A stretch of DNA of 64,000 bases from a bacterium (GCA_030648715.1 JAUSGZ010000014.1:1055-65054); one strand, 5' to 3'; counted from the stretch's first letter, positions 3,941-36,341 are shown. A program made the numbers and translations. The notes: generated by a model from the sequence alone, not told the origin.

Positions 3941-3943
3941 AAA

Positions 3944-6913: not shown

Positions 6914-6961
6914 AGGCGTACTATTTGCTTACGTTAGCACCGATTTTGACGCGGCGTCAAC

Positions 6962-6990
6962 CAAAAAACCGCCGTTGGGCGGTTTTCCCG
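6962..6990 (-). terminator. rho-independent terminator downstream of ferredoxin gene
   Basis: aaaaaaccgcc-gttg-ggcggtttt hairpin. On the minus strand it is followed by a T-run. Confidence 0.55.
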
Positions 6991-7005
6991 AGCCCGGAAT
7001 GGCGG

Positions 7006-7221: not shown

Positions 7222-7255
7222 AATGTAAATATTGTAGGACGGAACCCTGCCCCGG

Positions 7256-13259: not shown

Positions 13260-13273
13260 CATTCGTTCCATTG

Positions 13274-14920
13274 CTAGCTTCCCGCCATCGGCCGGCAGAG
13301 GCCGGCCAGACGGTCGAACCGAAAGAGGAAGATCTTCAACGGCTGCGGCAACGGCACGTACGTCGGCGTCCACCCGTCCGCGATGAGCGCGACGTCCAGA
13401 TCGAATAAGCTGGGAGTGACCGACACCACCCACAGCCGGTCGTACCGTGAAAGATCGGGTGGCAACCGGTAGTCGCGGTACGGAATGTGCGGGTGCGTCA
13501 GCAGGTAGCCTTCTACCGGCGTCTGCCGCGGCGATCCCGACGCGATGGTCAGCTGTCGGGAGCCGATTGTTTCCGGCACGAGGCTGCCGACCGTCTGGCC
13601 GCCGCGGTAGTAATAGTCCAAGAGGATCCGGTAGTTGGGCCAGAATCCCACGATGAGCTCGCGTCCGCCGCGCTCTTGGCCCTCAATAACCCGCGCGACC
13701 GCCGGAAACTGGTGCTGCGGGTCCCACGTAGCGTCATTGGTAAAATACTGCGGACCGTTCATCAGCACGTAGGCGCAAACCGCCACCGCCACGACGGCCA
13801 GGTGCGGAAATCCCAAGCGTACGCGCGCGAACAGCTCCTGCCCGGCCAACGCGATGGCGATGGCAACGGCCGGCAGGACGAACAGCACGTGGCGCTGGTA
13901 GTACCAGGAGTAACGGCCCGACATCGGTGAAACCAGGAACAGCAGCAACGGCGCAACCACCCACATGCCCACCAGCACCAGCCGCTGCCAGCGGTACGCG
14001 GCCGAGGTGTTCCCCTGCCGAACGCGCGCGAACGCCGTAACCGCTGCGAAACCGGCCCCGACGACCAGGAGCAGTAGTGTTGAACCCTGGAGCAGCCGGC
14101 CGAACGCATCGACAGGCCATTTACCCGGGAAAAAGAGAAAATTCATCACAACGTCCAATGGCAGAAAATTTTCCGGCTGCGTCAGCGCCGACAGCGGCGT
14201 CAAGTCGCCGACCGTGCGGTACTGCGCGAAAAGGTTCTTCGCCAGTACGGGCACCCACGGCAGATAGGCAGCCACAATCCCTCCCAATGCCACGGAAAGC
14301 TGCGTTCTCCCTTTTTTAGCGCGCGGGACAAACACCATGGCCGCCAGCACCTGGCTGCCCAGGACAAACCAGTACGCGTAGTGTGTGTACAGCCCGGCAA
14401 CCGCGAGTATGGTAAAACCGGTTATGGCCGCCCGCGAACCGGTTGTTTGCCACCGCGAGAGCGCAAACCACCCGCCGATCGCTATCGCAGTCAGCAGCAT
14501 GTACGGGCGCGCCTCGCGGGAAAACTCCACGAAGAACGGCGAGAGCGCCATCGCCATTGCTGCGACCGACGCCGTTTTGCGATCGAACCACTCCCGAGCT
14601 AACCCGTACAGCAGCCCGACGGACAGCAGCGCGAACAGCAGAGAGAAACCGCGCAGCGCGAACGCCGAGTCGCCCACTGCGCGGACCCACCCCGCCATCA
14701 TGAGGTAATAGAGCGGGGGGTGGTTCTCGTACTGCGCCAGGTACGCGGTCATCTCCACGGGATTTTCCGAATGCCGGTACACGCTCCAGCTCAACACCTC
14801 GTCGAACCACAATGGTTCGCTGCGCAGGTGCGGCAGCCCCAACAAAAAAGTAACCGCGAGCGCGGCAATCAGTCCCATCGGCAATTTCTTAGTCATGGGA
14901 AAACGCAACAACTTGAGCAT
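13274..14920 (-). CDS. GT-C fold glycosyltransferase, ArnT/PMT-like membrane protein
   Basis: 548 aa, polytopic. Loop-1 LWFDEVLSWSVY (DE motif). It is a third paralog of the same family. Confidence 0.75.
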   Translation of the reverse strand: MLKLLRFPMTKKLPMGLIAALAVTFLLGLPHLRSEPLWFDEVLSWSVYRHSENPVEMTAYLAQYENHPPLYYLMMAGWVRAVGDSAFALRGFSLLFALLSVGLLYGLAREWFDRKTASVAAMAMALSPFFVEFSREARPYMLLTAIAIGGWFALSRWQTTGSRAAITGFTILAVAGLYTHYAYWFVLGSQVLAAMVFVPRAKKGRTQLSVALGGIVAAYLPWVPVLAKNLFAQYRTVGDLTPLSALTQPENFLPLDVVMNFLFFPGKWPVDAFGRLLQGSTLLLLVVGAGFAAVTAFARVRQGNTSAAYRWQRLVLVGMWVVAPLLLFLVSPMSGRYSWYYQRHVLFVLPAVAIAIALAGQELFARVRLGFPHLAVVAVAVCAYVLMNGPQYFTNDATWDPQHQFPAVARVIEGQERGGRELIVGFWPNYRILLDYYYRGGQTVGSLVPETIGSRQLTIASGSPRQTPVEGYLLTHPHIPYRDYRLPPDLSRYDRLWVVSVTPSLFDLDVALIADGWTPTYVPLPQPLKIFLFRFDRLAGLCRPMAGS

Positions 14921-15038: not shown

Positions 15039-16778
15039 CTACATCGCGTCCGGCGCGGGGATGCCCAAAAGCGACAGCCCGCGGGCCATCACGGTCTTAA
15101 CTGCGAAAACGAGCTGCAGCCGGCTCGACAGCGTCGCGCCCTTGCTCTGCAGCACGGGGACATCCTGATAGAACGACGAGAACGTCTGCGCCAGCTCATA
15201 GAGGTAGGCCGACACAACGCTGGGGTCGTACACGGTCGCGGCACGCTGCACGGCGTGGGGAAAACGCGCCAGCGTTACGAGCAGCGCCTGCTCGAGCGGT
15301 TCCGTGAACGTCGGTTTCGTCTTCCGGGTTTTCCCGGCTTTCTCCAACAGGCTACAGCATCGCGCGTGCACATACTGCAGATACGGTCCGGTCCTGCCGG
15401 CGAACGCTAAGGATTTTTCCGGGTCGAACATCATCGTGGTTGTCGCATTGACCGACAGGATGTAGTACTTCAACGCCGCCAAGGCAATGGCGTGCGCCCG
15501 CTCCCTCACCGCGACGGCAGGCAATTTTTGGTGTCGCGCCCGCACTTCCTCGACCGCCAATTCGTCCAACAGGGAGAGGAGATCATCGGCGCCAGCGCCA
15601 GCCGGGATGCCTTGGCGCGATTTGATCTTGCCCGTCGGCAGCCGCATCATCCCGTACGATAAATGGTGCATCGGGTACGTCTGCCCCAGCTCCTGCATGA
15701 TGGCAAACAGCTGGCGGAACGCCAAATCCTGCTCCGCGCCAACGACGTAGATGGACAAGGCTGGGTCGTGCTTCCCTTTGAGCTGCGCCAGGTACAGGTC
15801 CTGCGTGATATACAGGCTGGTGCCGTCTGACCGCAGCAAAATTTTCTCCGGCAGCCCCTCGTCCTCCAACGGCGCATAGATGTAACCTTCGCTGTGGCGG
15901 CGGAACACCCCGCGCGCCAGCCCGTCCTCCACGACTTCCTTGCCGTGCCGGTAGATCTCGCTTTCAAAGTATCGCACCGCCGGATGGTCCACGCCCATCC
16001 GCTGCAATGTTTCCGTGAATCCATCCATCGTCCAATCAATGAGTTGACGCCAAATTCGCCGCACCTCGGGGTCGCCCGCCTCCCACTGGCGCAAACATTC
16101 CTGCGCCTCCTGTTCCAACTCGGGATGGGCTTCCACCTCTTGTCCGAAGCGCACGTAAAACTGGCCGACGAAATGGTCGGGCTTCATCCCCGCCGTTTCC
16201 GGCGTCGCGCCATTCCCCCAGCGGCGATAGGCGACCGTCGCCTTGCACAGCGCAATGCCGCGGTCGTTGTAGATCGAATTTTCCACCACCGTGAACCCGA
16301 GGGCGGAAAGCAAGCGCGACAGACTCCACCCCAGGCAGACGTTGCGCACGTGGCCCACCGTCATTGGCTTATTGGTGTTGGGCGAGAAATATTCCACCAG
16401 GATCGTTTTCCCTTTTCCAATATTCGCCGAGCCATACGCCGCTCCTTCTTTGACGATCTGGGGAAGCGTCAGCGCGGCGTAGGCGTCAGGCTGAACGAAA
16501 AAATTCACGTAGGGCCCTGCGGCCTGCGCGCGAGCGATCAGCGTCGCGGTTTTCGGCATCACTGCGGCCGCGATACGCCCTGCCACAACGGCAGGCGGTT
16601 CTCCCAAGGCTTTCCCCAGCGTAAAACAGGGCACCGTGAAGTGGCCCAGCGCCGGTTCCGGCGGGTAATCAACGGTGACCGTCGAAGTTTTCCCGACGAC
16701 GGCGCGCACAAAGTCAGTGATCTGTTCGCGGGCAGCCTGCTCCGCGCGGCTGAAATTTTTGTCCTCGATGATCGTCAT
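15039..16778 (-). CDS. argS: arginyl-tRNA synthetase
   Basis: 579 aa. N-terminal Arg-tRNA add-on domain, class I core with NTNKPMTVGHVRN (HIGH-like), and DALR anticodon-binding C-terminus. Confidence 0.92.
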   Translation of the reverse strand: MTIIEDKNFSRAEQAAREQITDFVRAVVGKTSTVTVDYPPEPALGHFTVPCFTLGKALGEPPAVVAGRIAAAVMPKTATLIARAQAAGPYVNFFVQPDAYAALTLPQIVKEGAAYGSANIGKGKTILVEYFSPNTNKPMTVGHVRNVCLGWSLSRLLSALGFTVVENSIYNDRGIALCKATVAYRRWGNGATPETAGMKPDHFVGQFYVRFGQEVEAHPELEQEAQECLRQWEAGDPEVRRIWRQLIDWTMDGFTETLQRMGVDHPAVRYFESEIYRHGKEVVEDGLARGVFRRHSEGYIYAPLEDEGLPEKILLRSDGTSLYITQDLYLAQLKGKHDPALSIYVVGAEQDLAFRQLFAIMQELGQTYPMHHLSYGMMRLPTGKIKSRQGIPAGAGADDLLSLLDELAVEEVRARHQKLPAVAVRERAHAIALAALKYYILSVNATTTMMFDPEKSLAFAGRTGPYLQYVHARCCSLLEKAGKTRKTKPTFTEPLEQALLVTLARFPHAVQRAATVYDPSVVSAYLYELAQTFSSFYQDVPVLQSKGATLSSRLQLVFAVKTVMARGLSLLGIPAPDAM

Positions 16779-16931
16779 ACGCCTGTCTTCTATTCTACCA
16801 GATTTCGCGCGCCAACAGGTCTTTTTTCCTTGACAAAATCAAAAAAATATGCTACCAATATATGCCTTTTGTTCATTCCGCGTGCTATTTCACAACCTTA
16901 CCCAACCTCGTTCCGAATTGAAAGGAGAACG

Positions 16932-17675
16932 ATGCGTTACCGACGATGGATGTTCTTCCCCTGGCAGACATGGGGAATGGTGGCGGCAATTTTTTTCGCC
17001 GCGGGAATCGCCTGGTGGAGCCTCAAGGGCATCCCCGACTACGACCCCAGCCGGCCATGGCAGTTCGCGCGCCTGGTCGCGAGCGGCGAGTACGCCTGGC
17101 AGGAGGAAGGAGATCTCCTCGTGTTCCATGGTGCGGTGCCGGCCATTCGCCAGGCGGCCCTGGATTCTCCCGCACCCGCCGTGCAACTCGAGCTGCGCAA
17201 GCTGCTCATCGCGCTGGACCCGGATGACGATACCCCTCGGATCTTTCAGGATGGCTCCGTCCCGCACGTCCTCAAATCCCTCCCCTGGGGCTTCAACCAC
17301 TGGCTCATCCACAACGGCCACTTGTGCGCCCGCCAGGGGACGGTCCGCGACGTAGTTATGGAATTGATGGAGCTTCCGGAACACGAAGCCCTGGCCGCGT
17401 GGCGCGACTATGTCGTACTGACCGTCATGACCGAGCTCCTCTACGACCAGCGATCGCGGTTCGGTCAGTTCAGTTTCTCGCCCCAGGACGTGGCGCACAC
17501 CACCGCCGAACTGCTGCGGGATGTCTACCGGCCGCTGCGCGCGGCCGCGAAGATCGAAGGCCGGGTGTGGCGCCTGCCCTCCATCCTGGGACCGCTTACC
17601 GAGCTTGAGCAGAAGCTCGCCGAACTGGGCGACCATTCCGAAACTCTGGAATGGTATCAACTGTTCCAGTTCTAG
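16932..17675 (+). CDS. hypothetical protein with one N-terminal TM helix (247 aa)
   Basis: ATG at 16932 preceded by RBS aaaggagaa. The upstream part of the long +ORF (15894..) is antisense to argS and was discarded. No recognisable motif. Confidence 0.55.
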   Translation: MRYRRWMFFPWQTWGMVAAIFFAAGIAWWSLKGIPDYDPSRPWQFARLVASGEYAWQEEGDLLVFHGAVPAIRQAALDSPAPAVQLELRKLLIALDPDDDTPRIFQDGSVPHVLKSLPWGFNHWLIHNGHLCARQGTVRDVVMELMELPEHEALAAWRDYVVLTVMTELLYDQRSRFGQFSFSPQDVAHTTAELLRDVYRPLRAAAKIEGRVWRLPSILGPLTELEQKLAELGDHSETLEWYQLFQF

Positions 17676-19455: not shown

Positions 19456-20535
19456 ATGGATCAGGCCGGATGGATCACCCGCCTGCAAGAACGCGAAGTG
19501 CTGTGGCGGCACGATGGCAAAACCGCGCGGCCGCACGCCGAGCTCACGTCGGGTCGGCACTCCGACGCCTTCTTCAACTGCAGCCGCATCATCCAAGATC
19601 CCGCGCTCCTCGCGGAGGTCTGCCGCGACATCGCGGCGCGCACCGACGGCCAACAGCGGCCCGATCGGATCTTTGGCACCGCCTACGGCAGCATCCCGCT
19701 CGCCCTGGAACTGGCGACCGCTTTCACCTGCCGCTTCGGCTTCACCGAACGCGAGGTGGGGGGCCCGCTGACGTTGAAGCGCTTTGATATCAAAGCCGGC
19801 GAACGCGTACTGGTCATCACCGGCTGCCACACGATGGAAAACCTCGCCACGATCGCCGAGACCGTCGGCCTGGTGGAAGCGCGCGGCGCGCGGGTACTGC
19901 CGAAGGTCGGCGCGCTGGTGTCCCGCGATGGAGGCACGGTCGCTGCCGGACGTCCGGTATTCGCGATGGACCTCGCCGTCAAATTCTGGGCGGAACGTTT
20001 CTACGACCTGCTCAAGTACGGCGCTGCGCAGGCCGCCATCGACAACCCCGGGATGTTGGAAAACATCGCCCGCGACCTGGTGTGCAATCTCCGGCTCGCC
20101 CCCGAGGAACAGCCTGCCTGGGTGGTTGCGACCGGCATCGATGCCATCGCATTCAGCTACATCCTCGCCAAACACCTCGGGTGTAACGCGGGGTTTGCCG
20201 AGCGCGAGATGCGCAAGGACGCGCCCCTGGCGCTGTGGCAGTTCCCCGCGCCGAACGGGTTGAAAGTGCTGGCGGCCGACGACGTCATCACCACCGGCGG
20301 CTCCACGCTGCAAACCATCGCAGCCCTCCGAGCTGCCGGCGCAACGGCGCTGCCCTACTGCTGCGCCATTGCCAACCGCTCAGGCAAGCCGTTGCTGCAC
20401 GATCGCCCGATCTTCTCGCTGCTGGACCTCTCCTGCAGCGACTGGGCTCCCGAGGACTGCCCGCTCTGCCGCCAAGGCTCCACCGCCATCCGCCCCAAAG
20501 GCCGCTGGCACGAACTGACGCAGCCGGTTTCATAG
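19456..20535 (+). CDS. tandem type-I phosphoribosyltransferase-domain protein (orotate-PRTase-like)
   Basis: 359 aa. N-terminal TSGRHSDAFFNC matches the OPRTase GEF.L.SG..S.YYFN hood. The first PRPP loop is degenerate (VLVITGCHTMENLATIAETV). The second is intact (VLAADDVITTGGSTLQTIAALRAAGA). Confidence 0.7.
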   Translation: MDQAGWITRLQEREVLWRHDGKTARPHAELTSGRHSDAFFNCSRIIQDPALLAEVCRDIAARTDGQQRPDRIFGTAYGSIPLALELATAFTCRFGFTEREVGGPLTLKRFDIKAGERVLVITGCHTMENLATIAETVGLVEARGARVLPKVGALVSRDGGTVAAGRPVFAMDLAVKFWAERFYDLLKYGAAQAAIDNPGMLENIARDLVCNLRLAPEEQPAWVVATGIDAIAFSYILAKHLGCNAGFAEREMRKDAPLALWQFPAPNGLKVLAADDVITTGGSTLQTIAALRAAGATALPYCCAIANRSGKPLLHDRPIFSLLDLSCSDWAPEDCPLCRQGSTAIRPKGRWHELTQPVS

Positions 20536-20581
20536 CCGACGCAAAAAGATCGGCGCTCCTTCCGCCGACACCGCCCTTTCG

Positions 20582-20610
20582 CCCCGCCGACACGACGGGG
20601 CCTTTTTTAT
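20582..20610 (+). terminator. rho-independent terminator
   Basis: ccccgccgacacgacggggcc followed by ttttttat. Confidence 0.55.
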
Positions 20611-21602
20611 ACCCGGAAGTGCGCCCGGTACCACGCGACGAATTTCTGCAGCCCGTCGGCAAATTTGGTCGTCGGTTCCCATCCCAAAAGGCGCTTGGCC
20701 TTGGCAACATCGGCAAAAGTTTTCGGCACGTCGCCAGGCTGCATCGGCAGCATCCTGGTGTTTGCCTTCACCCCCAGCGCGGCTTCCAAAGTTGCGACGA
20801 ATTCGCCGAGTCGTATCGGCTGGTGATTACCGAGGTTGATGAGCTCGTACCCCTGGGGCCGATCGATGGCGGTCACCACGCCCCGGACGATATCATCAAC
20901 AAAGGTAAAGTCGCGCTCCATATTCCCATGGTTGTAGAGGTCGACGGTCGCGCCGGAGAGCATCTTTTGCGTGAAACTGAAGTACGCCATGTCGGGCCGG
21001 CCCCACGGTCCGTAGACGGTGAAGAACCGCAACCCCGTGCAGGGGGTCGCGTGCAGCCGGTGATAGTTAAGCGCGAGCAGTTCCACGGTTCGCTTGGTGG
21101 CCGCATACAACGAGACGGGCTGCTCCACGCGGTCATCCTCGCTGAAAGGAACCTTGTCATTATCGCCGTACACCGACGAGGAAGAAGCGAAGATGAACGG
21201 TGGATTGCCATGCCGGCGGGAAATCTCCAACAGCGTGAGTGTACCCAGCACGTTGGACTCCACATACACGCGCGGGTTCTCCAGGGAGTAACGTACTCCG
21301 GCTTGCGCTGCCAGATGAGCTATCTTGTCGAACGCATGGTCGCGGAAGATCTTTTCCATCGCCGAGCGGTCGGTCAGGTCGGCGCGCACCACGGTCGGCG
21401 AGAATTCTGCAAGCAAATGCTGCACCCGCGCCTCCTTGAGCGCCGGGTCATAGTAGGGATTGAAATTATCTACGACAACGACTTGGTCGCCGCGCGAAAG
21501 CAACGCTCGCGCCACATGCGCCCCAATGAAGCCAGCACCGCCCGTAACCAGGATCGTTTGCGGCTTGCCCGGCAGTCCAATGGTCGAGCGTGTCTTACTC
21601 AC
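20607..21602 (-). CDS. NAD-dependent epimerase, UDP-glucuronate 4-epimerase-like
   Basis: 331 aa. ILVTGGAGFIGAHV Rossmann, DNFNPYYDPALK signature (typical of the UDP-GlcA 4-epimerase / WbpP-like subgroup), and YAATK catalytic YxxxK. Confidence 0.8.
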   Translation of the reverse strand: MSKTRSTIGLPGKPQTILVTGGAGFIGAHVARALLSRGDQVVVVDNFNPYYDPALKEARVQHLLAEFSPTVVRADLTDRSAMEKIFRDHAFDKIAHLAAQAGVRYSLENPRVYVESNVLGTLTLLEISRRHGNPPFIFASSSSVYGDNDKVPFSEDDRVEQPVSLYAATKRTVELLALNYHRLHATPCTGLRFFTVYGPWGRPDMAYFSFTQKMLSGATVDLYNHGNMERDFTFVDDIVRGVVTAIDRPQGYELINLGNHQPIRLGEFVATLEAALGVKANTRMLPMQPGDVPKTFADVAKAKRLLGWEPTTKFADGLQKFVAWYRAHFRV

Positions 21603-21736
21603 ATGACTAGGTTAAAATTTTCTGCCTCGGCCTGCATCAATTCCACCAATCCGTTGCACTACCGGGCATATTCGTAGAATAGATATGTAGCACAGCCGGA
21701 CACTTTTGGCTAGGTTGACTGTACGACAAAAGAATA

Positions 21737-22594: not shown

Positions 22595-22602
22595 GGGAAT
22601 GA

Positions 22603-22634
22603 AAAACGCCCCGAGACTGCGGGGCGTTTTTTTA
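22603..22634. terminator. bidirectional rho-independent terminator
   Basis: aaaaacgccccg-agac-tgcggggcgttttttt. Confidence 0.65.
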
Positions 22635-22638
22635 TTAT

Positions 22639-24930
22639 CTACCGTTTCGCTTCTTCCGCCAGCTGTTCGGGAGTTTTTATCTTGAGCGTGCGCTCCTTGG
22701 GCTGCTGCGGACGGACCTTTGGGCCAGCCAAGGGGATGGAGAACGAGAACACGCTGCCTTTGCCTTCGCCTTTGGACTCGGCGCCGATCATTCCCTCATG
22801 GATATCCACGATTTTTTTTGCGACGTACAGGCCCAGGCCCGTGCCCTCGGTGTGCACCAGCGCCGACCCGCGCCCGCGGGAGAATTTCTGGAAGAGGTGG
22901 GCGATAGTTTCCTTACTCATCCCCATACCGCTGTCCTGGACCGAGAACGTCAGGTACCCGGCCGGCTGTGCCGACAGCACAACATGGATGCTCCCCTTTT
23001 CGGTGTACTTCACGGCGTTATCTATGAAATTGATCATCACCTCGTGCAGTTTGTCTTTATCAACCACGGGTTTGGGCAGCGGTTTCGCCGGCTTTTCCAG
23101 CACGAGCGTTAGCTTTTTCTTCTCCGCCTGCGGCTTAAGGCTCTCCACGACGCCGGCGGCCATTTCATAACAGTCGGTCGGTTCCCACGTGTAAACCTGG
23201 CGGCCTGATTCAATGCGCGAAATGTTGAGCAGATCTTCCACCAAACCAATGAGCCGCTCGTTGGCTTCATAGACTTTGTCCAGCTGCTTGTGGATGAGCG
23301 GCGGGACCCTGCCGAAGGCCTGCTCGTTGATCATGGAGATAAACCCCTTGATGATGGTGAGCGGCGTACGCAGCTGGTGGCTGGCGATGGATATGAACTC
23401 GGACTTAGTGGCATCCAACCGCCGCAATTCGGCGTTCGCCGCCCGTAATTCCTGCGTGGCCTTGCGGACCTCATCTTTCAAAACTTCCGCGAAGTGCTTT
23501 TGCTCTTCATAGAGCAAGGCGTTCTCAATGGAGACTGCCAACTGCCCCGAGACGATCTTGAGCACCCGCAAGTCCTGGCTATTGTACGGCTCGCCTGATT
23601 TCTTGTTGCCGATGACAACCACCCCGATGAGCTTATCCTGTAAGCGGAGAGGGACGATGACTGCCAGATCCTGCTCGTGCATCGCCAGCATCAATTCAGG
23701 TTTAACGAACAGCTGGAGATTTTCTCCGTTCTCGTACTCGGTCTTGCGTTCTTCAATGACGAAAATGCCGGGCGTGCGCTTGAACTGTTCGAACATCACC
23801 CGCTCGTTGCCGCGCGCCAGCGCTTCGGCAACTCCTGGCGGGAACCCCTCCTGGTGAGCGATGTACAGTTTGCTTTTTTTATTGATGAGCGCCACGCCGA
23901 GCTTGTCCGCATGGAACGCTTCCGTCAAGGTGTGCGAAATGGACTGCAGGAGGTGGGCGAAATCCAGAGTGGACGATGTAATATGGTTGACCCGCGCGAT
24001 GAGCACATCCGGGTCGTAGGATTTTTTGTACAGGAAAGTATTGGTCGCGCGCTCAATGATGTCCCGCAGCGGTTTGTAAAAGACCGTCACCAACACCGCC
24101 AGAATGACGCCGGACAAAATGTTGGACTGCAGCCCCGCTAATTCTGCAAAGAGATAGGTAAAGAGCGCTGAAATGATCGAGAAAATACCGGTGATGATGA
24201 AAACGATGGCGCCGAAGGCAATGGTCCTAAAGATAATTACCCGAATATCCATGAATCGGTATTTCGCTATAGCGTAAGCCGTGAAGGAAACAAAAAATAT
24301 AGAACTTGCTGAATCGAGTGGGATAAACTCATTAATACCGAAAAGCGGAAGAATAACACTTACGGAGGTGGCTATAGTAGCGTAAATACTCAAGCCAATA
24401 AGTACATAGAGAATCTGTTTCCGCCGAACTCCACTAGATTGGTAAAATTTACTAAAGAGATAAAATAAACTGAAAAATAAAATTGAAATAATATATAAAC
24501 CGTAAATTGGAAAAAGTAATCCGTATCGCGCGTCGCCACCGCCGAAGGTGATGTTCTCTGCACCGACCAAAATAAGGTTTGAAAACTGTGCCAACAGTGC
24601 AAAAAAAGAACCGCAGAGATAAAGAATCCCGGTCAATTGTCGGCTGAATCGTCCGGTAGCAAAGTACAGAATCCATGCCACACACGCGGAAACAAGAAAA
24701 ACAGCGGTAGCATAACCGTTACGCAATAAAGCTAAACTAGGAAAAACGCCCGTTAAGAAATTATTAATCACCCAGTACCCAGAAATGAGTGCGAAAATAA
24801 AAAATAATTTTGCTGACAATATTTTCCGTTTCGAATATAAAACGATGAAAGCCAGAGCAACGTTCAAAACGCCAACCAAAAGCAAGAAATAAACCATATC
24901 TAGATCTAATGGACTTCTTTCCGGAGGCAA
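22639..24930 (-). CDS. sensor histidine kinase: N-terminal ~9-10 TM sensor domain, GAF domain, HisKA, HATPase_c
   Basis: 763 aa. H-box SHQLRTPLTIIKGF, N/G1/G2 boxes (NAVKYT, DSGMGM, GTGLGLYVAKK), GAF-like region, and a long polytopic N-terminus. The N-terminal ~260 codons (24150-24930) are conspicuously AT-rich while the kinase core is GC-rich. Confidence 0.85.
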   Translation of the reverse strand: MPPERSPLDLDMVYFLLLVGVLNVALAFIVLYSKRKILSAKLFFIFALISGYWVINNFLTGVFPSLALLRNGYATAVFLVSACVAWILYFATGRFSRQLTGILYLCGSFFALLAQFSNLILVGAENITFGGGDARYGLLFPIYGLYIISILFFSLFYLFSKFYQSSGVRRKQILYVLIGLSIYATIATSVSVILPLFGINEFIPLDSASSIFFVSFTAYAIAKYRFMDIRVIIFRTIAFGAIVFIITGIFSIISALFTYLFAELAGLQSNILSGVILAVLVTVFYKPLRDIIERATNTFLYKKSYDPDVLIARVNHITSSTLDFAHLLQSISHTLTEAFHADKLGVALINKKSKLYIAHQEGFPPGVAEALARGNERVMFEQFKRTPGIFVIEERKTEYENGENLQLFVKPELMLAMHEQDLAVIVPLRLQDKLIGVVVIGNKKSGEPYNSQDLRVLKIVSGQLAVSIENALLYEEQKHFAEVLKDEVRKATQELRAANAELRRLDATKSEFISIASHQLRTPLTIIKGFISMINEQAFGRVPPLIHKQLDKVYEANERLIGLVEDLLNISRIESGRQVYTWEPTDCYEMAAGVVESLKPQAEKKKLTLVLEKPAKPLPKPVVDKDKLHEVMINFIDNAVKYTEKGSIHVVLSAQPAGYLTFSVQDSGMGMSKETIAHLFQKFSRGRGSALVHTEGTGLGLYVAKKIVDIHEGMIGAESKGEGKGSVFSFSIPLAGPKVRPQQPKERTLKIKTPEQLAEEAKR

Positions 24931-25928
24931 TAGTTGATATTAAACCACGCAACGGTTCTATCCATCGCCTTCTCAAAACTTAAAAAACCATTATCGAGAT
25001 GCTGTTTCATTGAGCTGGAATCAACCTCTAGGCTGGACGTTACCATTGAAAGGCTCGACCGAGTAATCATTGGTCTTGTCTTTATGCCTAACAATCGGTG
25101 ATAATTCTCAAACAATAAGGAGGCGACATAGCCTAAGACGTACGGAATATTCACGACGACGGCTTTTGCATTACAGGCTGGTTTAAAAAATGTCACGAAC
25201 TGTCGCCACGTAATCTTAGCATCGTCGCAGAGATTCATTTTGGTGCCGCTGGGTAATCCATCGATGCGATCTAAAACATTCCTGACGAAAAAGGCAAAAT
25301 TCTCAACGTACAATAACGGTATATATGTATCCTTCTTACCAGGCAGTAAAAGAAAACCTTGCTTTAGGTTGTGGATAATTTCTGGAATCAAGGTTTTATC
25401 ACCTGGACCGAACAGCCACGCTGGCCGAAGAATAACAACCTTAAAATATTCACGACTATCAACGGCGGCTAACTCGCCAAGAAGTTTCGTTTTTTGGTAG
25501 GGATGGCCCGAAGAAGTGTAAGGAGTAGTTTCGGAAAGTACCGTGTGTTTCCCGTGCTTATAGTCCAAAACATCAATGGTACTTATGTAGAGGAAATTTT
25601 TAATCGCAGCTAGACGCGATGCCTCCAGTAACCGACGCGTCCCATTAACGTTAACCTCATAAAAAATTTCCTTGGGACCCCAATCAGATACGACAGCCGC
25701 TGAATGGATAACATGCTCTATCTCATTTTTCTCTAAAAGGTCAAACAGGGCTTCTGCACTGCTCAAATCACCTTGTAACAGGGTAATCCTCGGATTATTG
25801 ACGAATAATTGAGTGTGTACACTAATTTTTCTTACCAAGGCGTATACTTGGTAACCATGCAAAGCCAACACTTTGCATATAGAGCGCCCCGCAAACCCAT
25901 TCGCTCCGGTTACTAAAACTTTTGCCAC
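24906..25928 (-). CDS. NAD(P)-dependent epimerase/dehydratase-family reductase (extended SDR)
   Basis: 340 aa. VLVTGANGFAGRSI Rossmann, YQKTK (YxxxK). It lies in a lower-GC region and is co-directional with the AOS gene and the histidine kinase (25-bp overlap with the kinase start). Confidence 0.75.
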   Translation of the reverse strand: MAKVLVTGANGFAGRSICKVLALHGYQVYALVRKISVHTQLFVNNPRITLLQGDLSSAEALFDLLEKNEIEHVIHSAAVVSDWGPKEIFYEVNVNGTRRLLEASRLAAIKNFLYISTIDVLDYKHGKHTVLSETTPYTSSGHPYQKTKLLGELAAVDSREYFKVVILRPAWLFGPGDKTLIPEIIHNLKQGFLLLPGKKDTYIPLLYVENFAFFVRNVLDRIDGLPSGTKMNLCDDAKITWRQFVTFFKPACNAKAVVVNIPYVLGYVASLLFENYHRLLGIKTRPMITRSSLSMVTSSLEVDSSSMKQHLDNGFLSFEKAMDRTVAWFNINYCLRKEVH

Positions 25929-25939
25929 GTAGGTGTTCG

Positions 25940-27160
25940 TTACGACCCTTGCCTTTTTTCTAATTTTTCAAGTAGCTTATCAATATGCTGCTTCGTATGG
26001 CTTGCTGTCAGGGTCAAACGTAGCCGTTCGTAGCCGACCTCGACTGCGGGTCGCCGAATGGCCGGAGCCAAAATCCCCGCCTTATATAGCGCATCGGAAA
26101 GTTCAATTACTTTTTTCTCGGAGCGTACCATTAGCGGAACGATCGCTGTCTCGCCGGGTATGGTCTCCAGACCTAAGCGCTGCAGCCCTTGACGCAGGTG
26201 GGTAGCATTCTCTTTCAGTTGTTTTCGGAGACCATGCCCATCGCGGATGATCTCTAGAGTCTTGAGCAGCCCAGCAACAAAGGCCGGCGGTATTGGGTCT
26301 GAAAAAATATAGCCGCGTCCGGTCACGCGAATGTAATCCGCCAAATCTTTTGAAATGGCGGCGACGTAGCCGCCAATACTCCCCCATGCCTTCGTGAAAC
26401 TCGCCATTACCAAATCTACTTTCCCTGCGACACCAAGGTGAGCGGCGGTACCCTCGCCGTTCGGTCCTAATACACCGGCACCATGGGCGTCGTCTACGTA
26501 TAACACTGCGTCATACTCCTGGCTTAAATCGACCAATCGAGGAAGATCAGCAAAGTCGCCATCCATGCTAAAAACGCCGTCGGTAACGATCGCCTTGCGA
26601 ACTATTTTACGACGGCGCAGCTCTCGTTCGAGTCCGTCGTAGTCGCGGTGTTTATAGATCACTCGTTCTGCATACGACAGGCGCACTGCATCAACGATAC
26701 TGGCATGGTTCAGCTGGTCACTGAAAATGGCACCCGGTTTGTCTTTCTTGATCAATGGAAAATATGGGAAAGGGTCTGCCAAATACCGTATGACACTTGT
26801 ATTCGCGAGAAAGCCAGAGGAGAAGGTCACCGAATCCTTAACCTGCAAGAAATTCGCCAGTTCCCTCTCAAATTGCTGTTGAACGTCCAATGAACCCGAC
26901 AGTAGCCGAGTGCTCCCGGAGCCAACGCCGTAGCGTTCAACCGCTTGCTGAACTGCAAGTTTAATTTCAGGATTATTTGCCAACCCCAAATAGTTATTGG
27001 AACAGAAGGAGAGATATTTCTTACCCCCAATGATAATTTCCGGAGCGGTCGAGGGGCCGGAAATTTCTGGTATGCGAGGGTATAAATTGTTTTCGCGGAG
27101 GTGACGAACGACTTCTGAAAAATACCCAAGTTTGCCATCCTGCATACCTTCATCCGACAT
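25940..27160 (-). CDS. PLP-dependent alpha-oxoamine synthase family acyltransferase (BioF / Kbl / serine palmitoyltransferase / CqsA-like)
   Basis: 406 aa. VDDAHGAGVLG and the PLP-lysine motif SFTKAWGSIGGY are diagnostic of the AOS family. Subfamily cannot be assigned from sequence alone. Confidence 0.8.
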   Translation of the reverse strand: MSDEGMQDGKLGYFSEVVRHLRENNLYPRIPEISGPSTAPEIIIGGKKYLSFCSNNYLGLANNPEIKLAVQQAVERYGVGSGSTRLLSGSLDVQQQFERELANFLQVKDSVTFSSGFLANTSVIRYLADPFPYFPLIKKDKPGAIFSDQLNHASIVDAVRLSYAERVIYKHRDYDGLERELRRRKIVRKAIVTDGVFSMDGDFADLPRLVDLSQEYDAVLYVDDAHGAGVLGPNGEGTAAHLGVAGKVDLVMASFTKAWGSIGGYVAAISKDLADYIRVTGRGYIFSDPIPPAFVAGLLKTLEIIRDGHGLRKQLKENATHLRQGLQRLGLETIPGETAIVPLMVRSEKKVIELSDALYKAGILAPAIRRPAVEVGYERLRLTLTASHTKQHIDKLLEKLEKRQGS

Positions 27161-27331
27161 TATTACGAGTTATCAACCACACAACATTATACCGCTTTTG
27201 GCAAGGGAAAACAAAAAAACCGGCGTGGGTCGGGTATCTACGCGGAGTAAAAAAATGAACGGATAACTCTAATTGCGGCTACCAGCTATTTCTAGTATAG
27301 TTATATTATCCCGACAAGAACTCAGGATTGT

Positions 27332-27901
27332 ATGACACAGGAAAAGCCGAACCCAAGCTCCGCACCAGGAGTCGTACTGCGCACAGCCATTCTCCTATTT
27401 ATCTATGGCATCGCTGGTCTTATCTACCTTTTTTGGGTTATCCAAGGAAGCTACGGGGCGATTTTCCTCGCCATTGACGGCTTGGTTTTTATCTTGGTGA
27501 TATTGACGGGTTCAATATGGACAATTATGGCTGGACTTTCATTAATTTCTAGAAAAAAACTTCCTACCAACAATTTAGGATGGGTGGCTACCCTCACAAT
27601 ATTGCCAGCATCTTTTGCAGCATACGATATCGCAAGCTATTATGGTATGCCAATTATTGGGGCATGGGCGGCACTTATTGGAGGTTTAATAATTTTTTAT
27701 AAAAAACTTTCAAAAGATATTAGATTGGTTATGATTTTAATCGCAGTACCTACGGGCATTCTGGCATACGATATTTTGAGACATAGCAGCAAAACACAAA
27801 TCATTGGCGACCTTACCACTTCAGGATTGTTTATTTTTGTAATCATCCTCTACCATCACCTACAAGCTTCTATCAAAGTCCTTAAACGACAGCAAGAGTA
27901 G
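27332..27901 (+). CDS. hypothetical small polytopic membrane protein (5-6 TM), AT-rich
   Basis: 189 aa ORF on plus strand, hydrophobic throughout, terminator directly downstream. Confidence 0.5.
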   Translation: MTQEKPNPSSAPGVVLRTAILLFIYGIAGLIYLFWVIQGSYGAIFLAIDGLVFILVILTGSIWTIMAGLSLISRKKLPTNNLGWVATLTILPASFAAYDIASYYGMPIIGAWAALIGGLIIFYKKLSKDIRLVMILIAVPTGILAYDILRHSSKTQIIGDLTTSGLFIFVIILYHHLQASIKVLKRQQE

Positions 27902-31244: not shown

Positions 31245-33038
31245 TTACCGATCGTAAAGGGAAACAATCTCCTTGGCGTAGTGGCGTTCGATGACCGAAC
31301 GGCGGAGTTTCTGGGTGGGCGTGACTTCGTCGCGCTCGGCCAAAAATTCATCGGGCAAGAGCGCGAAGCGACGTACCTGCTCAAAATCGGGCCGGTCGGC
31401 AAGCGCTTTGGTGATGCGTTCTTGGTAGAGCGCGCGCACGCCCTTGTGGTTCAGCAGTTCTTTTCTATCTGCCGGCCAGCCTTGCGTCTGCGCTTCTTGC
31501 AGCAACGCGGGCCACACCGGCACCACCAAGGCAACAACATACGGCTTCCCGTGGGCAACAGCCATAGACTGCGCGATGAGCGAGTCGTTGTTCATCGCGT
31601 TCTCCAACACTGCCGGCCAGATATTTTTTCCTCCCGCCGTTACTAGCATTTCTTTTCGGCGACCGATAATAAACAGGAACCCGTCCGGGTCAATAAATCC
31701 CAGATCGCCGGTGTGCAGCCAACCGTCGGCGTCAATGAGCTCACGCGTTGCCCCTTCGTCTTGCCAATAGCCGGCGCAGATGTTTTCCCCGCGCGCCAGA
31801 ACTTCCTTGTCGTGCGAGATTCTCACCTGCACGCCGGAAAGGGGAATGCCGACGCTGCCGAACTTCCGTTTCGCTGGGCTATTGACCGTGATGACCGGTG
31901 AAGTTTCGGTCAGGCCATAGCCCTCATAAATTTGCACCCCCACGCGGTCAAAGAATTTCGCCAATGGGGGATGCAGCGCCGCCCCGCCGGAAATGGATAG
32001 CCGCAACCGCCCGCCCAGCGCGCGCAGGACCTTCGCAAACACGAGACGGCTGGCGAGTTGGTGCTGCCAGGTGCCGTGGCGTTGGCGCAACGCCCAGGTG
32101 AACAGCCGTTTCCGCCAGGCAAGGCCGGCGTTCGCCTTGGCCCAGACGGCATCGTGGAATTTTTCAAACACGCGCGGCACCGCAATGAGAATGGTGGGAT
32201 GCACCTCCAATAAATTTTCCTTCAGGGTGGAGGGATTTTCGGCAAAGGCGATCGTTGCGCCATGCGTCAGCGGCATCAGGTACCCGGCCATGTGCTCCAA
32301 TACGTGGGACAGCGGCAGGAACGACAGAAAAAGGTCTGTCGGGTAGACCGGGATAGCCAACATGGATGCTGTTACATTGGAAAGAAAATTTTTGTGGGTC
32401 AGGACCACTCCGTGCGGCAAGCCGGTGGTGCCCGATGTATAGACGATGCTGGCCGCATCATCGGACTGGCGGGGCGTTGGCGCTGACAACGGAGCCGCGG
32501 AAATAATATCATCCCAGCGGTGGCAGGCAACGGCAGCGAGCTGTGGCACGACGGCATTCGCCACCACCAGGTGCCGCACCGTAGGCAATCCCCGTAGCGC
32601 TTCCACAGTTTTTTTCAGCAACCCCTCCCCTGCCGCCACCACGATGCTGGCGCCGGAATGTTCCAGCACGTAGCGGATGAGCGCCGAACTGAAGGTCGTG
32701 TGCACCGGTACCGTTACCCCGCCGGCAAACATCGTCGCCAGGTCCGCAACAACCCACGCCGAACCATTCGGGGCGACGACGGCCACGCGGTCGCCCGGCT
32801 GCAAGCCGAGTTGGCGCAAGCCCGCCGCGCACCGCCGCACCTGGTCGGCGAGCTGGGCGTAGGTGATGCCGTAGTACTGGCCGCCTCGTTTTTCCCGCAA
32901 CGCCACATGGTCGCCATGGAGTTTGGCGACCTCAAGAACGGTTGACGGGATAGTTATTGACATGAGACTGAAGAAAATTGGTGGGTAGGTAGTACGGGTC
33001 ATTGCGAGGAGTCCCGCCAACTCGGGACGACGCGGCAA
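31245..33038 (-). CDS. long-chain fatty-acid--CoA ligase (AMP-binding / ANL superfamily)
   Basis: 597 aa. AMP-binding motif IVYTSGTTGLPHGVVLTHKNF, YGLTE, and TGDLG...DRKKE-like C-terminal motifs. Confidence 0.85.
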   Translation of the reverse strand: MPRRPELAGLLAMTRTTYPPIFFSLMSITIPSTVLEVAKLHGDHVALREKRGGQYYGITYAQLADQVRRCAAGLRQLGLQPGDRVAVVAPNGSAWVVADLATMFAGGVTVPVHTTFSSALIRYVLEHSGASIVVAAGEGLLKKTVEALRGLPTVRHLVVANAVVPQLAAVACHRWDDIISAAPLSAPTPRQSDDAASIVYTSGTTGLPHGVVLTHKNFLSNVTASMLAIPVYPTDLFLSFLPLSHVLEHMAGYLMPLTHGATIAFAENPSTLKENLLEVHPTILIAVPRVFEKFHDAVWAKANAGLAWRKRLFTWALRQRHGTWQHQLASRLVFAKVLRALGGRLRLSISGGAALHPPLAKFFDRVGVQIYEGYGLTETSPVITVNSPAKRKFGSVGIPLSGVQVRISHDKEVLARGENICAGYWQDEGATRELIDADGWLHTGDLGFIDPDGFLFIIGRRKEMLVTAGGKNIWPAVLENAMNNDSLIAQSMAVAHGKPYVVALVVPVWPALLQEAQTQGWPADRKELLNHKGVRALYQERITKALADRPDFEQVRRFALLPDEFLAERDEVTPTQKLRRSVIERHYAKEIVSLYDR

Positions 33039-33264: not shown

Positions 33265-34122
33265 CTACGCTGCCTCTTTCTCCAGCTCCTGAATGAACTC
33301 GTCGACCTTACGGAAAATTTCCTCGCGGCGGTCCGAATCCGGCAAATTGTGGTAGCGGCCGTTCAACCAGTACATCTTTTTGTGGTTGGACCCCAGGTGC
33401 TGGTGGATGTACGGGGCACTCTTAGGATGCACCACCGGATCCTGGTCGGCCTGGATCATCAAGGTCGGCGTCGTGATCCCCTCCAGCGTAGGAATAGTGC
33501 GCGTACGGATGAAGCGCAAAAACTCGCGCAGGCAGCGGATGGGAATGACCGGGTAGCTCACCTGGTCGGACAGGTCAATGTAGTCCACCTTGTACTCGCG
33601 ACCGGATTTTCTGTGGTAGCTCATGAACCAGGCGTAGGTGTAGGTACGCAGCAGAATGAACCAGTGGCCGCGCAGCTTGATGGGGGTACCGAGCGAGACA
33701 ATTCCCGACACCAGGTCCGGATACCGGTGAGCCAGCCAGAATGCAAGGTTGCCGCCGAACGAATTCCCCACGACGATCACTCGCTTCACATAGCGGCGCA
33801 GGTGGTGCAACGCCTCCTCTGCGGATCTCGCCCAATCCTCGCCGGTCGTTTTGGACATCTCCTTTGGCGACGTCCCGTGGCCCGCGATGAGCGGCGAGTA
33901 GACCGTGAAGCCCCGGTCCACCAAAAATTTGCTTAATTCACGGAACTGGTGCGGCGTGCTGGTGAAACCATGCAGCAGCAGCAGGCCGACCTCGGACCCC
34001 TTATCTATAAAAAGAGGCTCGCCGCCTTTCATAAAAGGGAGGGAGCCTGAAATGCTCGCCGAGGCAACGGTTACCGCGTCAGCAAGCGTCGGACCGAATT
34101 TTGTGGGTATCGCATTAGCCAT
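33265..34122 (-). CDS. alpha/beta-hydrolase fold esterase/lipase
   Basis: 285 aa. HGFTSTP (oxyanion HG), nucleophile elbow GNSFGG, C-terminal acid/His region. Confidence 0.75.
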   Translation of the reverse strand: MANAIPTKFGPTLADAVTVASASISGSLPFMKGGEPLFIDKGSEVGLLLLHGFTSTPHQFRELSKFLVDRGFTVYSPLIAGHGTSPKEMSKTTGEDWARSAEEALHHLRRYVKRVIVVGNSFGGNLAFWLAHRYPDLVSGIVSLGTPIKLRGHWFILLRTYTYAWFMSYHRKSGREYKVDYIDLSDQVSYPVIPIRCLREFLRFIRTRTIPTLEGITTPTLMIQADQDPVVHPKSAPYIHQHLGSNHKKMYWLNGRYHNLPDSDRREEIFRKVDEFIQELEKEAA

Positions 34123-34428: not shown

Positions 34429-34500
34429 CTCCCTGTAGCTCAACGGATAGAGCAGCGCCGTCCTAAGGCGATGATGGGGGTTCAATTCCCTCCAGGGAGA
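34429..34500 (+). tRNA. tRNA-Arg (anticodon CCT), unusual C1-G72 and G27.A43
   Basis: CTCCCTG acceptor / CAGGGAG-A, D arm GCTC-AACGGATA-GAGC, anticodon arm GCGCC-GTCCTAA-GGCGA, T arm GGGGG-TTCAATT-CCCTC. 72 nt with no encoded CCA. An AT-rich region lies immediately upstream. Confidence 0.65.
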
Positions 34501-34566
34501 ATGAAGGCGATCGGCGCATCGGCGCCAAAGCCTGCAGCCGTGTACTTGATTGGCATATCTGCTAGG

Positions 34567-35316
34567 ATGGATGCAGTAAACCATTCTATGGCTGCCGCAA
34601 AGACTTCGCAAAAACTACCGGTGCCCGATGCCACGGCTTCGGAGTTCATCACCGTGATGGCGCACCAGCTCCGCACGCCGCTCTCGGCGGTCAAGTGGGT
34701 CATGAATATGCTGCTTGCCGGCGATGTCGGTGAACTGACTCCGGAACAAAAAAGTTTGCTGCTCAAGGGCTACCAGAGCAACGAACGCATGATCAGCCTG
34801 GTCAACGACATGCTCAACGTCGCGCTGATCGAAGCCGGGCGTTTGCGTTTCCGCGCGACACCCCGCTCATTTGAGGATTTAGTGAATGAAGTGATGCTGG
34901 ATTTTTTTGGCCCTATTCAGCGTAAAAAGATCCGGTTCGCTTTGAACGTAACACCCCCCGCTCTGCCCAAAGTTTCCCTGGATCCGGACCGCATGAAGAC
35001 GGTACTGCACAACCTGCTCGAGAATGCGGTACAATACACGCCGGTGAACGGCTCCATTACCGTAGGATTGGAAAAAGACGGTGAGAAAATATCGGTCACG
35101 ATCCAAGACAGCGGGATCGGCATCCCCAAGCAGCAGCAGAAAAAGATATTTTCCCGGTTTTTCCGCGGCGATAATGCCGTGCGCATGGAAACCGACGGCT
35201 CCGGCCTTGGGCTGTACGTCGTGCGCCGGATCATCGAGCAGCATGGGGGTCGCGTCTGGTTTGAAAGCGAGGAAGGAAAAGGAAGCGCCTTTCACTTTAC
35301 TCTTCCCGTGGCCTAG
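34567..35316 (+). CDS. cytoplasmic sensor-less histidine kinase (HisKA + HATPase_c only)
   Basis: About 249 aa from MDAVNHS. H-box AHQLRTPLSAVKW, N-box NLLENAVQYT, G-boxes DSGIGI / GSGLGLYVV. No TM or sensor domain. The ORF-track start at 34471 overlaps the tRNA, so the internal ATG at 34567 was chosen. Confidence 0.75.
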   Translation: MDAVNHSMAAAKTSQKLPVPDATASEFITVMAHQLRTPLSAVKWVMNMLLAGDVGELTPEQKSLLLKGYQSNERMISLVNDMLNVALIEAGRLRFRATPRSFEDLVNEVMLDFFGPIQRKKIRFALNVTPPALPKVSLDPDRMKTVLHNLLENAVQYTPVNGSITVGLEKDGEKISVTIQDSGIGIPKQQQKKIFSRFFRGDNAVRMETDGSGLGLYVVRRIIEQHGGRVWFESEEGKGSAFHFTLPVA

Positions 35317-35330
35317 CCTATCACGAGCGT

Positions 35331-36267: not shown

Positions 36268-36341
36268 GGGCCTGTAGTACAGTGGTAATACGCCGCATTC
36301 GCATTGCGGAGGCGGGGGTTCGATTCCCCCCAGGTCCACCA
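36268..36341 (+). tRNA. tRNA-Ala (anticodon CGC), CCA encoded
   Basis: GGGCCTG acceptor with G3.U70 (Ala identity), anticodon arm CCGCA-TTCGCAT-TGCGG, T arm GGGGG-TTCGATT-CCCCC, 3' CAGGTCC-A-CCA. Followed by the terminator hairpin aatcccgtacgcgggatttttt (36341-36367). Confidence 0.85.

Follow-up and report, generated by a model that had tools for sequence, protein, structure and literature searches.

Does a bacterium that couples an alpha-oxoamine synthase (AOS) and a short-chain dehydrogenase/reductase (SDR) to a membrane-embedded histidine kinase make a signal and listen to it, or does it make a lipid? This is the question raised by three genes at positions 22639-27160 of a 64,000-nucleotide stretch of contig JAUSGZ010000014.1 (assembly GCA_030648715.1, nucleotides 1055-65054), the whole of which is called the window below. 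The initial annotation left two options open, a CqsA/LqsA-like autoinducer circuit and a sphingoid-lipid module. Comparative sequence analysis leads us to regard the operon as, on balance, probably a version of an AOS signal circuit found in the Candidate Phyla Radiation (CPR), which would consist of a synthase, a tailoring enzyme, a receptor kinase with seven transmembrane helices (7TM) and exchangeable "dialect" cassettes.

The operon and the synthase-kinase pair

By synteny and homologs, the host is a CPR bacterium (Parcubacteria) with high GC content, and the genes of the operon are likewise of CPR origin. The closest kinase homolog belongs to "Parcubacteria group bacterium Gr01-1014_31", two contigs of which (loci L167 and L168) align collinearly with the window over 22 kb, at a nucleotide identity of about 89%; the same flanks recur in a Patescibacteria genome that is more distant (L169). 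The operon is laid out as follows.

25940-27160, minus strand: AOS, 406 aa; Pfam Aminotran_1_2
24906-25928, minus strand: extended SDR, 340 aa, GTG start, MDO8559656.1; Pfam Epimerase/3Beta_HSD
22639-24897, minus strand: histidine kinase, 752 aa from ATG 24897; HisKA_7TM, GAF, HisKA and HATPase_c
24265-24897, minus strand: variable HisKA_7TM sensor module of the kinase, residues 1-211; seven helices and an extracytoplasmic beta-hairpin at residues 110-125
23968-24264, minus strand: conserved kinase segment, residues 212 to about 310; cytoplasmic KYRFMDIR motif, two conserved transmembrane (TM) helices and a linker
22639-23967, minus strand: cytoplasmic part of the kinase; GAF (residues about 314-459), HisKA and HATPase_c
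24260-25970, minus strand: block replaced relative to L167; last ~10 AOS codons, SDR and the 7TM module of the kinase

As had been claimed, all three open reading frames (ORFs) are present on the minus strand and tightly packed, with 11 nt between the AOS and the SDR. For the kinase, ATG 24897, 8 nt past the SDR stop, is a more likely start than TTG 24930, because the N-termini of its homologs align at the former position. The operon is closed by a strong intrinsic terminator at 22601-22632, which sits between the kinase and a convergent 285-aa ORF without family match.

The first gene can be assigned to the AOS family of pyridoxal phosphate (PLP) enzymes of fold type I, with the catalytic set intact. 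Its Aminotran_1_2 match scores 195.7 bits (1.7e-57), and both motifs quoted in the initial annotation were found, YVDDAHGAG at residue 222 and SFTKAWGSIGG at residue 254, the PLP lysine being K257. All catalytic positions of BioF are kept: H152, S198, D223, H226, S254, K257 and R369 align with H133, S179, D204, H207, T233, K236 and R349 of Escherichia coli BioF. The protein deposited at NCBI is 401 aa long and starts at M6.

As to the place of the enzyme within the family, it falls below the cutoff of every NCBIfam AOS equivalog. It scores 393.4 bits with the BioF model TIGR00858 (cutoff 426.45), 367.6 and 284.5 bits with the models of KBL (cutoffs 460 and 493), 314, 265.7 and 204 bits with the three equivalogs of serine palmitoyltransferase (SPT; cutoffs 640, 500 and 670), 286 bits with that of 5-aminolevulinate synthase (ALAS; cutoff 339) and 191.3 bits with the CqsA/LqsA equivalog NF005526 (cutoff 428). 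The solved structures give a similar picture, with 270 bits for KBL, 260 for the Thermus BioF/KBL, 232-233 for SPT, 229 for E. coli KBL, 211 for BioF and 112 for CqsA. The suggestion that the AOS is CqsA/LqsA-like by sequence was thus not upheld (191 vs 428 bits with the equivalog, 112 bits with the CqsA structures), the distance being judged by the scores of hidden Markov models (HMMs) and phmmer, since the tree described below contains no CqsA/LqsA reference sequence. A tblastn search of plasmids matched KBL, ALAS and BioF and no annotated CqsA.

In a neighbor-joining tree of 206 AOS sequences, all the kinase-linked AOSs fall into one clade of 46 sequences (bootstrap 57), the core of which, 40 sequences including the window AOS, has a bootstrap of 100; no bio- or tdh-linked member occurs in this clade. 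Its sister is the Sphingobacterium SPT, with a weak bootstrap of 45; the tdh-linked KBL clade branches next, just outside these two, and BioF lies further out. Because it sits outside the bioA/bioB-linked clade, the AOS cannot be said to cluster robustly inside BioF, the outcome that the initial annotation had named as contrary to its proposal. Its observation that biotin-operon neighbours are missing was also confirmed: neither bioA nor bioB, nor tdh, was found in the window. The enzyme can therefore be placed in a CPR-specific, kinase-linked clade, separate from the context-verified BioF and KBL. The closest relatives, at 55-63% identity, come from Falkow-, Pace-, Sung-, Staskawicz- and Taylorbacteria and other Parcubacteria. 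The clade is further marked by an 11-aa insertion, DPFPYFPLIKKDKPG (nt 26732-26776; DPFPYF...) in the window AOS, which precedes SDQLNHAS; seen against the KBL, BioF and SPT structures, an insertion before SDxLNHAS is invariant throughout the clade.

The linkage to the kinase was compared with control AOS loci, obtained by contig scans of genomes and metagenomes with the AOS alignment. Most of the matches listed by these scans were BioF/KBL homologs of 35-42% identity in other phyla, and the CPR clade was poorly sampled; the 153 non-clade loci among the matches listed served as the negative control. In 15 of the 16 CPR-clade loci that have enough downstream sequence (the window, L003-L007, L040, L083, L163, L166, L167/168, L169, L170/171, L173 and the P0022 contig), the AOS has a HisKA_7TM receptor downstream in the same orientation; the exception is L002. 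Among the listed control matches the corresponding figure is 0/153, and any kinase core within 4 kb is seen in 2/153. When the neighbours of 171 AOS loci were tabulated, 17 had a homologous 7TM receptor, all of them CPR, about 37 had bioA and/or bioB and about 46 had tdh, and the three contexts never mix. Synthase and kinase are often separated by 1-50 nt; L167, with its AOS stop at 9573 and its kinase ATG at 9575, has a 1-nt spacer. The adjacency persists where the AOSs are only ~40% identical and the surrounding genes wholly different. An AOS of autoinducer type beside a membrane kinase is thus the best supported of the options initially offered, given an adjacency that is kept in deeply separated CPR lineages and confined to a single AOS clade.

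The third gene can be classified as a HisKA_7TM histidine kinase. The membrane domain and GAF ascribed to it earlier were confirmed, and its start and helix layout had to be corrected, to ATG 24897 and nine helices. In an AlphaFold (AF2) model of residues 1-289, with a predicted local distance difference test score (pLDDT) of 85, the nine predicted helices correspond to the 7TM module plus two. HisKA_7TM (PF16927) matches residues 5-218 with 39.5 bits against a gathering threshold of 28.6, and a search of NCBIfam with the sensor region gave no match. The catalytic part shows HisKA (59 bits) with the phospho-acceptor H507 and HATPase_c (89.5 bits) with the N-box at 623, G1 at 655 and G2 at 685; there is no receiver domain.

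The interchangeable middle slot and the mosaic receptor

What lies between synthase and kinase differs from locus to locus, as follows.

Kinase directly after the AOS: L005, L006, L040, L083, L167/168, L169, L173
Formyl_trans_N between AOS and kinase: L163, L170/171, L004, P0022 contig
GNAT between AOS and kinase: L003; probably L164/165, where the contig ends
Classical SDR between AOS and kinase: L166
Amidohydro_2 between AOS and kinase: L007

An extended SDR in this position was seen only in the window organism among the loci examined, so the initial idea of the triad as a conserved unit was not borne out: no other locus examined has the AOS, an extended SDR and the kinase together. All the enzymes of the middle slot act on amines, ketones or amides, that is, on groups that an alpha-amino-ketone or an N-acyl derivative of it would carry. 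Pairs of an SDR and a kinase without an adjacent AOS are found in L172 and L006b. GNAT acetyltransferases lie directly upstream of 7TM kinases in L003, L164/L165 and L172. In L166, two stand-alone HisKA_7TM proteins of 226 and 214 aa (6176-7534) are encoded just upstream of the AOS-SDR-kinase operon; their identity to one another, as to every kinase-borne module, is ~25%, and they could be independent receptors or spare sensor modules.

As for the reductase of the window, its description as an extended SDR holds good: TGANGFAG is found at residue 7 and YQKTK at residue 144, and Pfam gives Epimerase with 121 bits (6e-35) and 3Beta_HSD with 90.5 bits (1e-25), by which the protein can be assigned to the extended SDRs of the NAD-dependent epimerase/dehydratase, 3beta-HSD type. 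Its top NCBIfam matches are OleD-type 2-alkyl-3-oxoalkanoate reductases, far under cutoff, and no equivalog cutoff was reached. The gene is missing from the syntenic L167 and L169. In L172, which has no AOS nearby, a 44% identical ortholog immediately precedes a kinase whose 7TM module is of the window's type. The subfamily is rare, with one cluster above 40% identity among 1.84 billion (1.84e9) representatives; relatives at 33-36% identity include Jorgensenbacteria and other Patescibacteria.

According to blastn and MAFFT identity profiles, the window and L167 are ~89% identical on both sides of a 1.7-kb block that replaces 0.68 kb in L167. Identity stays at 80-100% until 25,970 (about AOS codon 397), is lost for 1.7 kb and is back at ~24,260; the downstream edge is sharp, passing from unalignable sequence to 57-60 of 60 identical nucleotides at ~24,230-24,170, at the KYRFMDIR motif. 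The L167 counterpart consists of just the AOS tail and a different 7TM module. Relative to this near-identical genome, the SDR and the 7TM module are best described as exchanged as one block. The upstream edge falls inside the last ~10 AOS codons, which explains the atypical C-terminus of the window AOS: nearly all members of the clade end in ...IGKxLKII, and the window AOS in ...EKLEKRQGS (25940-25975). Next to the downstream edge, at 24049-24228, ~180 nt show 96-100% nucleotide identity to L167 against a background of 89%, which hints that the conserved segment with TM helices 8 and 9 was recently homogenised, as a recombination anchor.

Two other readings were considered and abandoned. Insertion of the SDR by a mobile element was ruled out because there are no flanking repeats, repeats being at chance level. 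The second concerns the low-GC patch noted in the initial annotation, which does exist but is uneven in composition: the GC content at third codon positions (GC3) is 0.52 in the AOS, 0.45 in the SDR, 0.37 in the 7TM module and 0.39 in orf189, the divergent gene upstream of the AOS, and 0.69-0.76 in the remainder of the kinase gene. That the whole patch is a single foreign island was rejected because only 24.26-25.97 kb differs from L167; the AOS and orf189 are equally low in GC in that syntenic relative.

The mosaic structure is not peculiar to the window. In several sets of kinases the part after KYRFMDIR is nearly the same and the 7TM module is not.

Window, L167 and P0125 kinases: 95-97% identity after KYRFMDIR, 21-32% in the 7TM module
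P0129 and P0122 kinases: 92% identity after KYRFMDIR, 30% in the 7TM module
L172 and P0133 kinases: 88% identity after KYRFMDIR, 32% in the 7TM module
Two L006 receptors (3535-5289; 12332-13444): 92% identity after KYRFMDIR, 33% in the 7TM module

Of the L006 receptors, the first, which follows an AOS, lacks a recognisable kinase core, and the second is preceded by a classical SDR. Conversely, the 7TM type of the window is 59-66% identical to those of L173, L172, P0129 and P0132, the remaining parts of these proteins being just 54-73% identical. The 7TM modules can thus be described as deep allelic types that do not follow the phylogeny of the kinase core. The GC3 values of the 7TM module and the kinase core are 0.37 and 0.76 in the window, 0.39 and 0.76 in L167 and 0.37 and 0.70 in L173, a contrast inside kinase genes that suggests repeated import from a lower-GC pool. 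Modules grouping with that of L170 are found in three independent loci (L170/L163, L003 and L004), 41-50% identical to one another; in all three, and in no other locus, the gene immediately upstream of the kinase encodes an N-formyl or N-acetyl transferase.

A proposed signal circuit and its rivals

For a signal circuit, we infer the substrates, the product, its binding by the kinase and the role of the dialects as follows. The AOS would join an amino acid and an acyl-CoA in a condensation that gives a lipophilic alpha-amino-ketone; the lipase and the FadD-like ligase encoded nearby could plausibly provide the acyl-CoA from scavenged fatty acids. The extended SDR, a putative tailoring ketoreductase, would reduce the 3-keto group of this AOS product and give an amino-alcohol. 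The product would partition into the membrane and be read by the 7TM module of the co-transcribed kinase, in the way CqsS reads CAI-1, and the kinase would signal through its part composed of GAF, the dimerization and phosphotransfer domain (DHp) and the catalytic domain (CA) to a response regulator encoded elsewhere. The variable block would set the specificity of the signal, giving rise to "dialects" by analogy with the pherotypes of agr or comQXP. The two options of the initial annotation converge chemically, since the product of an AOS and a ketoreductase would be a sphingoid-base-like amino-alcohol; we favour a signal over a bulk lipid because the reductase is non-conserved and the receptor hypervariable.

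Several observations weigh against a signal circuit. By the HMM and structure-sequence scores, the AOS is nearer to KBL, SPT and BioF than to CqsA. The 7TM module has no sequence match in the PDB at E ≤ 10, and a Foldseek search of its model against the PDB, apparently without CqsS entries, gave weak, generic matches to 7TM proteins resembling G protein-coupled receptors. Compared with CqsS, the window kinase has nine helices and not six, contains a GAF domain and lacks a receiver domain; besides, the operon is without a response regulator. The tailoring gene and the 7TM type, as far as the loci can be compared, co-vary imperfectly: L173 has the window-type 7TM module (66% identical), no SDR and a different AOS type. 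The AOS-kinase association comes from ~14 independent loci and physical linkage alone could produce it; the same linkage could explain the L170-type transferase association, which comes from a small sample. Finally, pressure from phages or from interaction with the host could also lie behind hypervariable membrane modules that are exposed at the surface.

A more far-reaching form of the same idea, in which the system is a small-molecule analogue of pherotypes in CPR, with the AOS as the core, a swappable tailoring enzyme and 7TM module, recombination of these parts among lineages from a low-GC pool and many private dialects, is proposed tentatively, and we consider it less likely than not. If it is true, private amino-ketone or amino-alcohol dialects would serve kin recognition or host sensing in ultra-small episymbionts.

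Among the other explanations, a structural lipid module survives best, although we consider it unlikely. In this case the AOS would be SPT-like and the SDR a 3-keto-sphinganine-type reductase, their sphingoid or amino-lipid would enter the membrane of a bacterium unable to make fatty acids, and the 7TM kinase would monitor membrane composition and regulate the pathway. An AOS together with a NAD-dependent reductase of the epimerase family is indeed the known logic of bacterial ceramide synthesis, the best family matches of the SDR are lipid 3-oxo reductases (OleD, HpnA, 3beta-HSD), and a putative lipase and a FadD-like ligase adjoin; no ceramide synthase or acyl carrier protein (ACP) gene was seen in the window, however. 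The Sphingobacterium SPT is the sister of the clade, if weakly supported (bootstrap 45), and the SPT structures, at 232 bits, are close to KBL, but the three NCBIfam SPT equivalogs remain far below cutoff. Most difficult to reconcile with such a module is its variability: the reductase is absent in the closest relatives and replaced elsewhere by a formyl or acetyl transferase or by nothing, which would be odd for a housekeeping lipid pathway, and a homeostasis sensor is not expected to have 21-33% identical 7TM alleles on 92-97% identical backbones.

The genes may also be unrelated neighbours, which we find distinctly improbable: a KBL/BioF-like metabolic AOS, engaged in amino-acid or cofactor salvage, beside a kinase that senses an external or host lipophilic cue, the two being co-transcribed only because a small genome has compacted its operons, or because that metabolism is under the control of the kinase. 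CPR genomes are compact, the top family scores (393 bits with BioF, 368 with KBL) are not far under their cutoffs and the best solved relatives are KBLs. Yet neither the window nor any kinase-linked locus has tdh, bioA or bioB, which flank most of the non-CPR homologs among the matches listed; the clade is distinct, with an invariant 11-aa insertion near an active-site motif; and the adjacency is kept across AOSs of ~40% identity while the surroundings change completely.

Least probable of all is an inter-organism effector, in which the amino-ketone, or pyrazines formed from it spontaneously, would target the host bacterium or competitors, with the kinase for feedback or self-protection: CPR bacteria are episymbionts, a receptor and tailoring set of such variability would be in keeping with an arms race, and KBL-type alpha-amino-ketones dimerise to pyrazine signals (DPO, AI-3), as discussed for the CPR Tdh homologs (PMC7567580), but no gene of transporter, immunity or toxin type consistently accompanies the pair at the loci examined, and on chemical grounds N-formylation, N-acetylation or keto-reduction would block pyrazine formation.

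Should the favoured signal circuit prove to be a working one, it would be among the few testable communication systems in CPR. Much of bacterial diversity belongs to the CPR/Patescibacteria, which live attached to other microbes; to our knowledge, almost nothing has been learned of how they sense partners or kin. Since it takes only two or three genes, the circuit would be transferable to E. coli. The pattern of cassettes predicts which enzyme makes which receptor's ligand and puts the specificity determinants into the first ~210 kinase residues. The pairing of AOS and kinase had in itself already been predicted; the mosaicism provides a testable model of signal-receptor diversification in CPR. 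If the operon encodes a lipid pathway instead, it would bear on scavenged-lipid remodelling in bacteria without fatty-acid synthesis.

Neighbouring genes and known systems

The features around the operon that could bear on its regulation or substrate supply are as follows.

22601-22632, no strand assigned: bidirectional intrinsic terminator; 13-bp stem, 7 G-C pairs, flanking A and T runs
27161-27331, no strand assigned: divergent intergenic/promoter region between the AOS and orf189; 97.5% identical to L167
27978-30752, minus strand: PKD-domain putative secreted lipase, 924 aa; sub-threshold Lipase match
31245-33038, minus strand: FadD-like acyl-CoA ligase, by Pfam and NCBIfam
33265-34122, near the operon: alpha/beta hydrolase

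The identity of the intergenic region to L167 exceeds that of the adjoining coding DNA (~88-89%), and a perfect TATAAT lies ~30 nt upstream of the AOS ATG, though a promoter scan of the AOS upstream region gave no signal above chance. The region may be a conserved regulatory one. A riboswitch or other RNA element within it was considered and dropped, as a search of Rfam gave no match. The divergent orf189 (27332-27901, plus strand) matches nothing in Pfam, NCBIfam or elsewhere; its L167 counterpart is 97% identical, and a 44% identical homolog is encoded at another place on L170.

The acyl-CoA ligase and two esterases that had been noticed nearby proved to be the ligase, one alpha/beta hydrolase and, in place of the second esterase, the PKD protein with its sub-threshold Lipase match. 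The L169 homolog of the latter has a clear Lipase match and lies near the AOS-kinase pair; the lipase-like and FadD-like genes are syntenic in L167, and homologs of the 924-aa protein also occur in L170. Both are separate transcription units. They may supply substrate and are putative members of the system.

A soluble HisKA-HATPase kinase and, after it, a 261-aa double-receiver protein without output domain are encoded at 34471-36116 on the plus strand. The latter (35331-36116) is the sole response regulator in the window and, together with the soluble kinase, is conserved in L167; it is a possible relay partner of the 7TM kinase. The soluble kinase is probably ~242 aa long, as in L167, because a tRNA (34429-34500) overlaps the start of the longest ORF.

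The GalE-like epimerase (20607-21602, minus strand) was rejected as a part of the system, being of sugar-nucleotide type and outside the operon. The ORFs at 15894-17675 (plus strand, 593 aa) and 20235-21677 (plus strand, 480 aa) are opposite-strand shadows, typical of high-GC DNA, of the genes for arginyl-tRNA synthetase (ArgRS; 15039-16778, minus strand) and for this epimerase. The window also encodes isoleucyl-tRNA synthetase (IleRS), several PMT_2 glycosyltransferases, a split transketolase and many proteins without Pfam match. Another tRNA (36268-36338) is directly followed by a low-GC ORF (36442-38103; GC 0.46, weak DUF6798 match), a second compositionally odd patch that may have been inserted beside the tRNA.

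Contrary to the initial annotation, the pairing of an AOS with a kinase in this lineage had been described before. Bernard et al. (2020, mSystems 5:e00414-20, PMC7567580) reported 362 "CqsA homologs" in CPR, 51 of which adjoin putative sensor kinases, and so predicted such pairs in silico (Table 1, Table S4). Some of those kinases match an in-house HMM of the CqsS N-terminal sensor with E of ~1e-10 to 1e-15, and a part of the kinase calls is based on a generic HATPase FunFam and not on a sensor-domain match; the best reference matches of the CPR AOSs are glycine C-acetyltransferase (KBL) or 8-amino-7-oxononanoate synthase (AONS; Table S2 there). Those pairs and that of the window share the CPR lineage and a BioF/KBL-like AOS adjoining a polytopic histidine kinase; the earlier work is a BLAST/HMM census and does not include the variable tailoring gene, the 7TM exchange, the separate AOS clade or the window organism. 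The weak pairs of a "LuxI homolog" and a CqsS-sensory kinase listed there are probably the GNAT-kinase arrangement described above and not acyl-homoserine lactone (AHL) synthases. A search of the accessible literature found no later follow-up of the predicted CPR AOS-kinase pairs. Four features appear to be new to the literature searched: an AOS clade of its own, tailoring genes that replace one another, a mosaic boundary that is sharp against a near-identical genome, and deep 7TM types.

The systems CqsA/CqsS of Vibrio and LqsA/LqsS of Legionella resemble the window in that a synthase of the AOS family is encoded beside a membrane-embedded sensor kinase, an arrangement found in the window and 14 further CPR-clade loci. 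In Vibrio cholerae, a separate NADPH-dependent reductase reportedly completes CAI-1 (Wei et al. 2011). The differences are that the window kinase, with its 7 + 2 TM helices and GAF domain, is not a hybrid kinase, and that no LuxU/LuxO or LqsR gene is found nearby. The location of the ligand in CqsS, where CAI-1 is bound inside the transmembrane domain (PMC13174287), is the one presumed here for the 7TM module. With bacterial sphingolipid and ceramide synthesis the window shares an AOS, a NAD-dependent extended-SDR reductase and an acyl-activating enzyme nearby; unlike that pathway, it reaches no SPT cutoff, shows no ceramide synthase or ACP and has a reductase that is not conserved with the AOS.

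The arrangement of the variable part finds its closest parallel in agrBDCA of Staphylococcus and comQXP of Bacillus, where conserved flanks, the kinase core among them, enclose a hypervariable block that takes in the enzyme modifying the signal and the sensor domain of the receptor kinase. The same layout is seen in the identity profile of the window against L167, in the identity matrices of the 7TM modules and kinase cores and in the GC3 contrast, and loci of the window type, like agr and comQXP, share deep allelic types across lineages. The signals of agr and comQXP are ribosomal peptides; that of the window would be a small molecule derived from the AOS product, with pherotype groups proposed by analogy.

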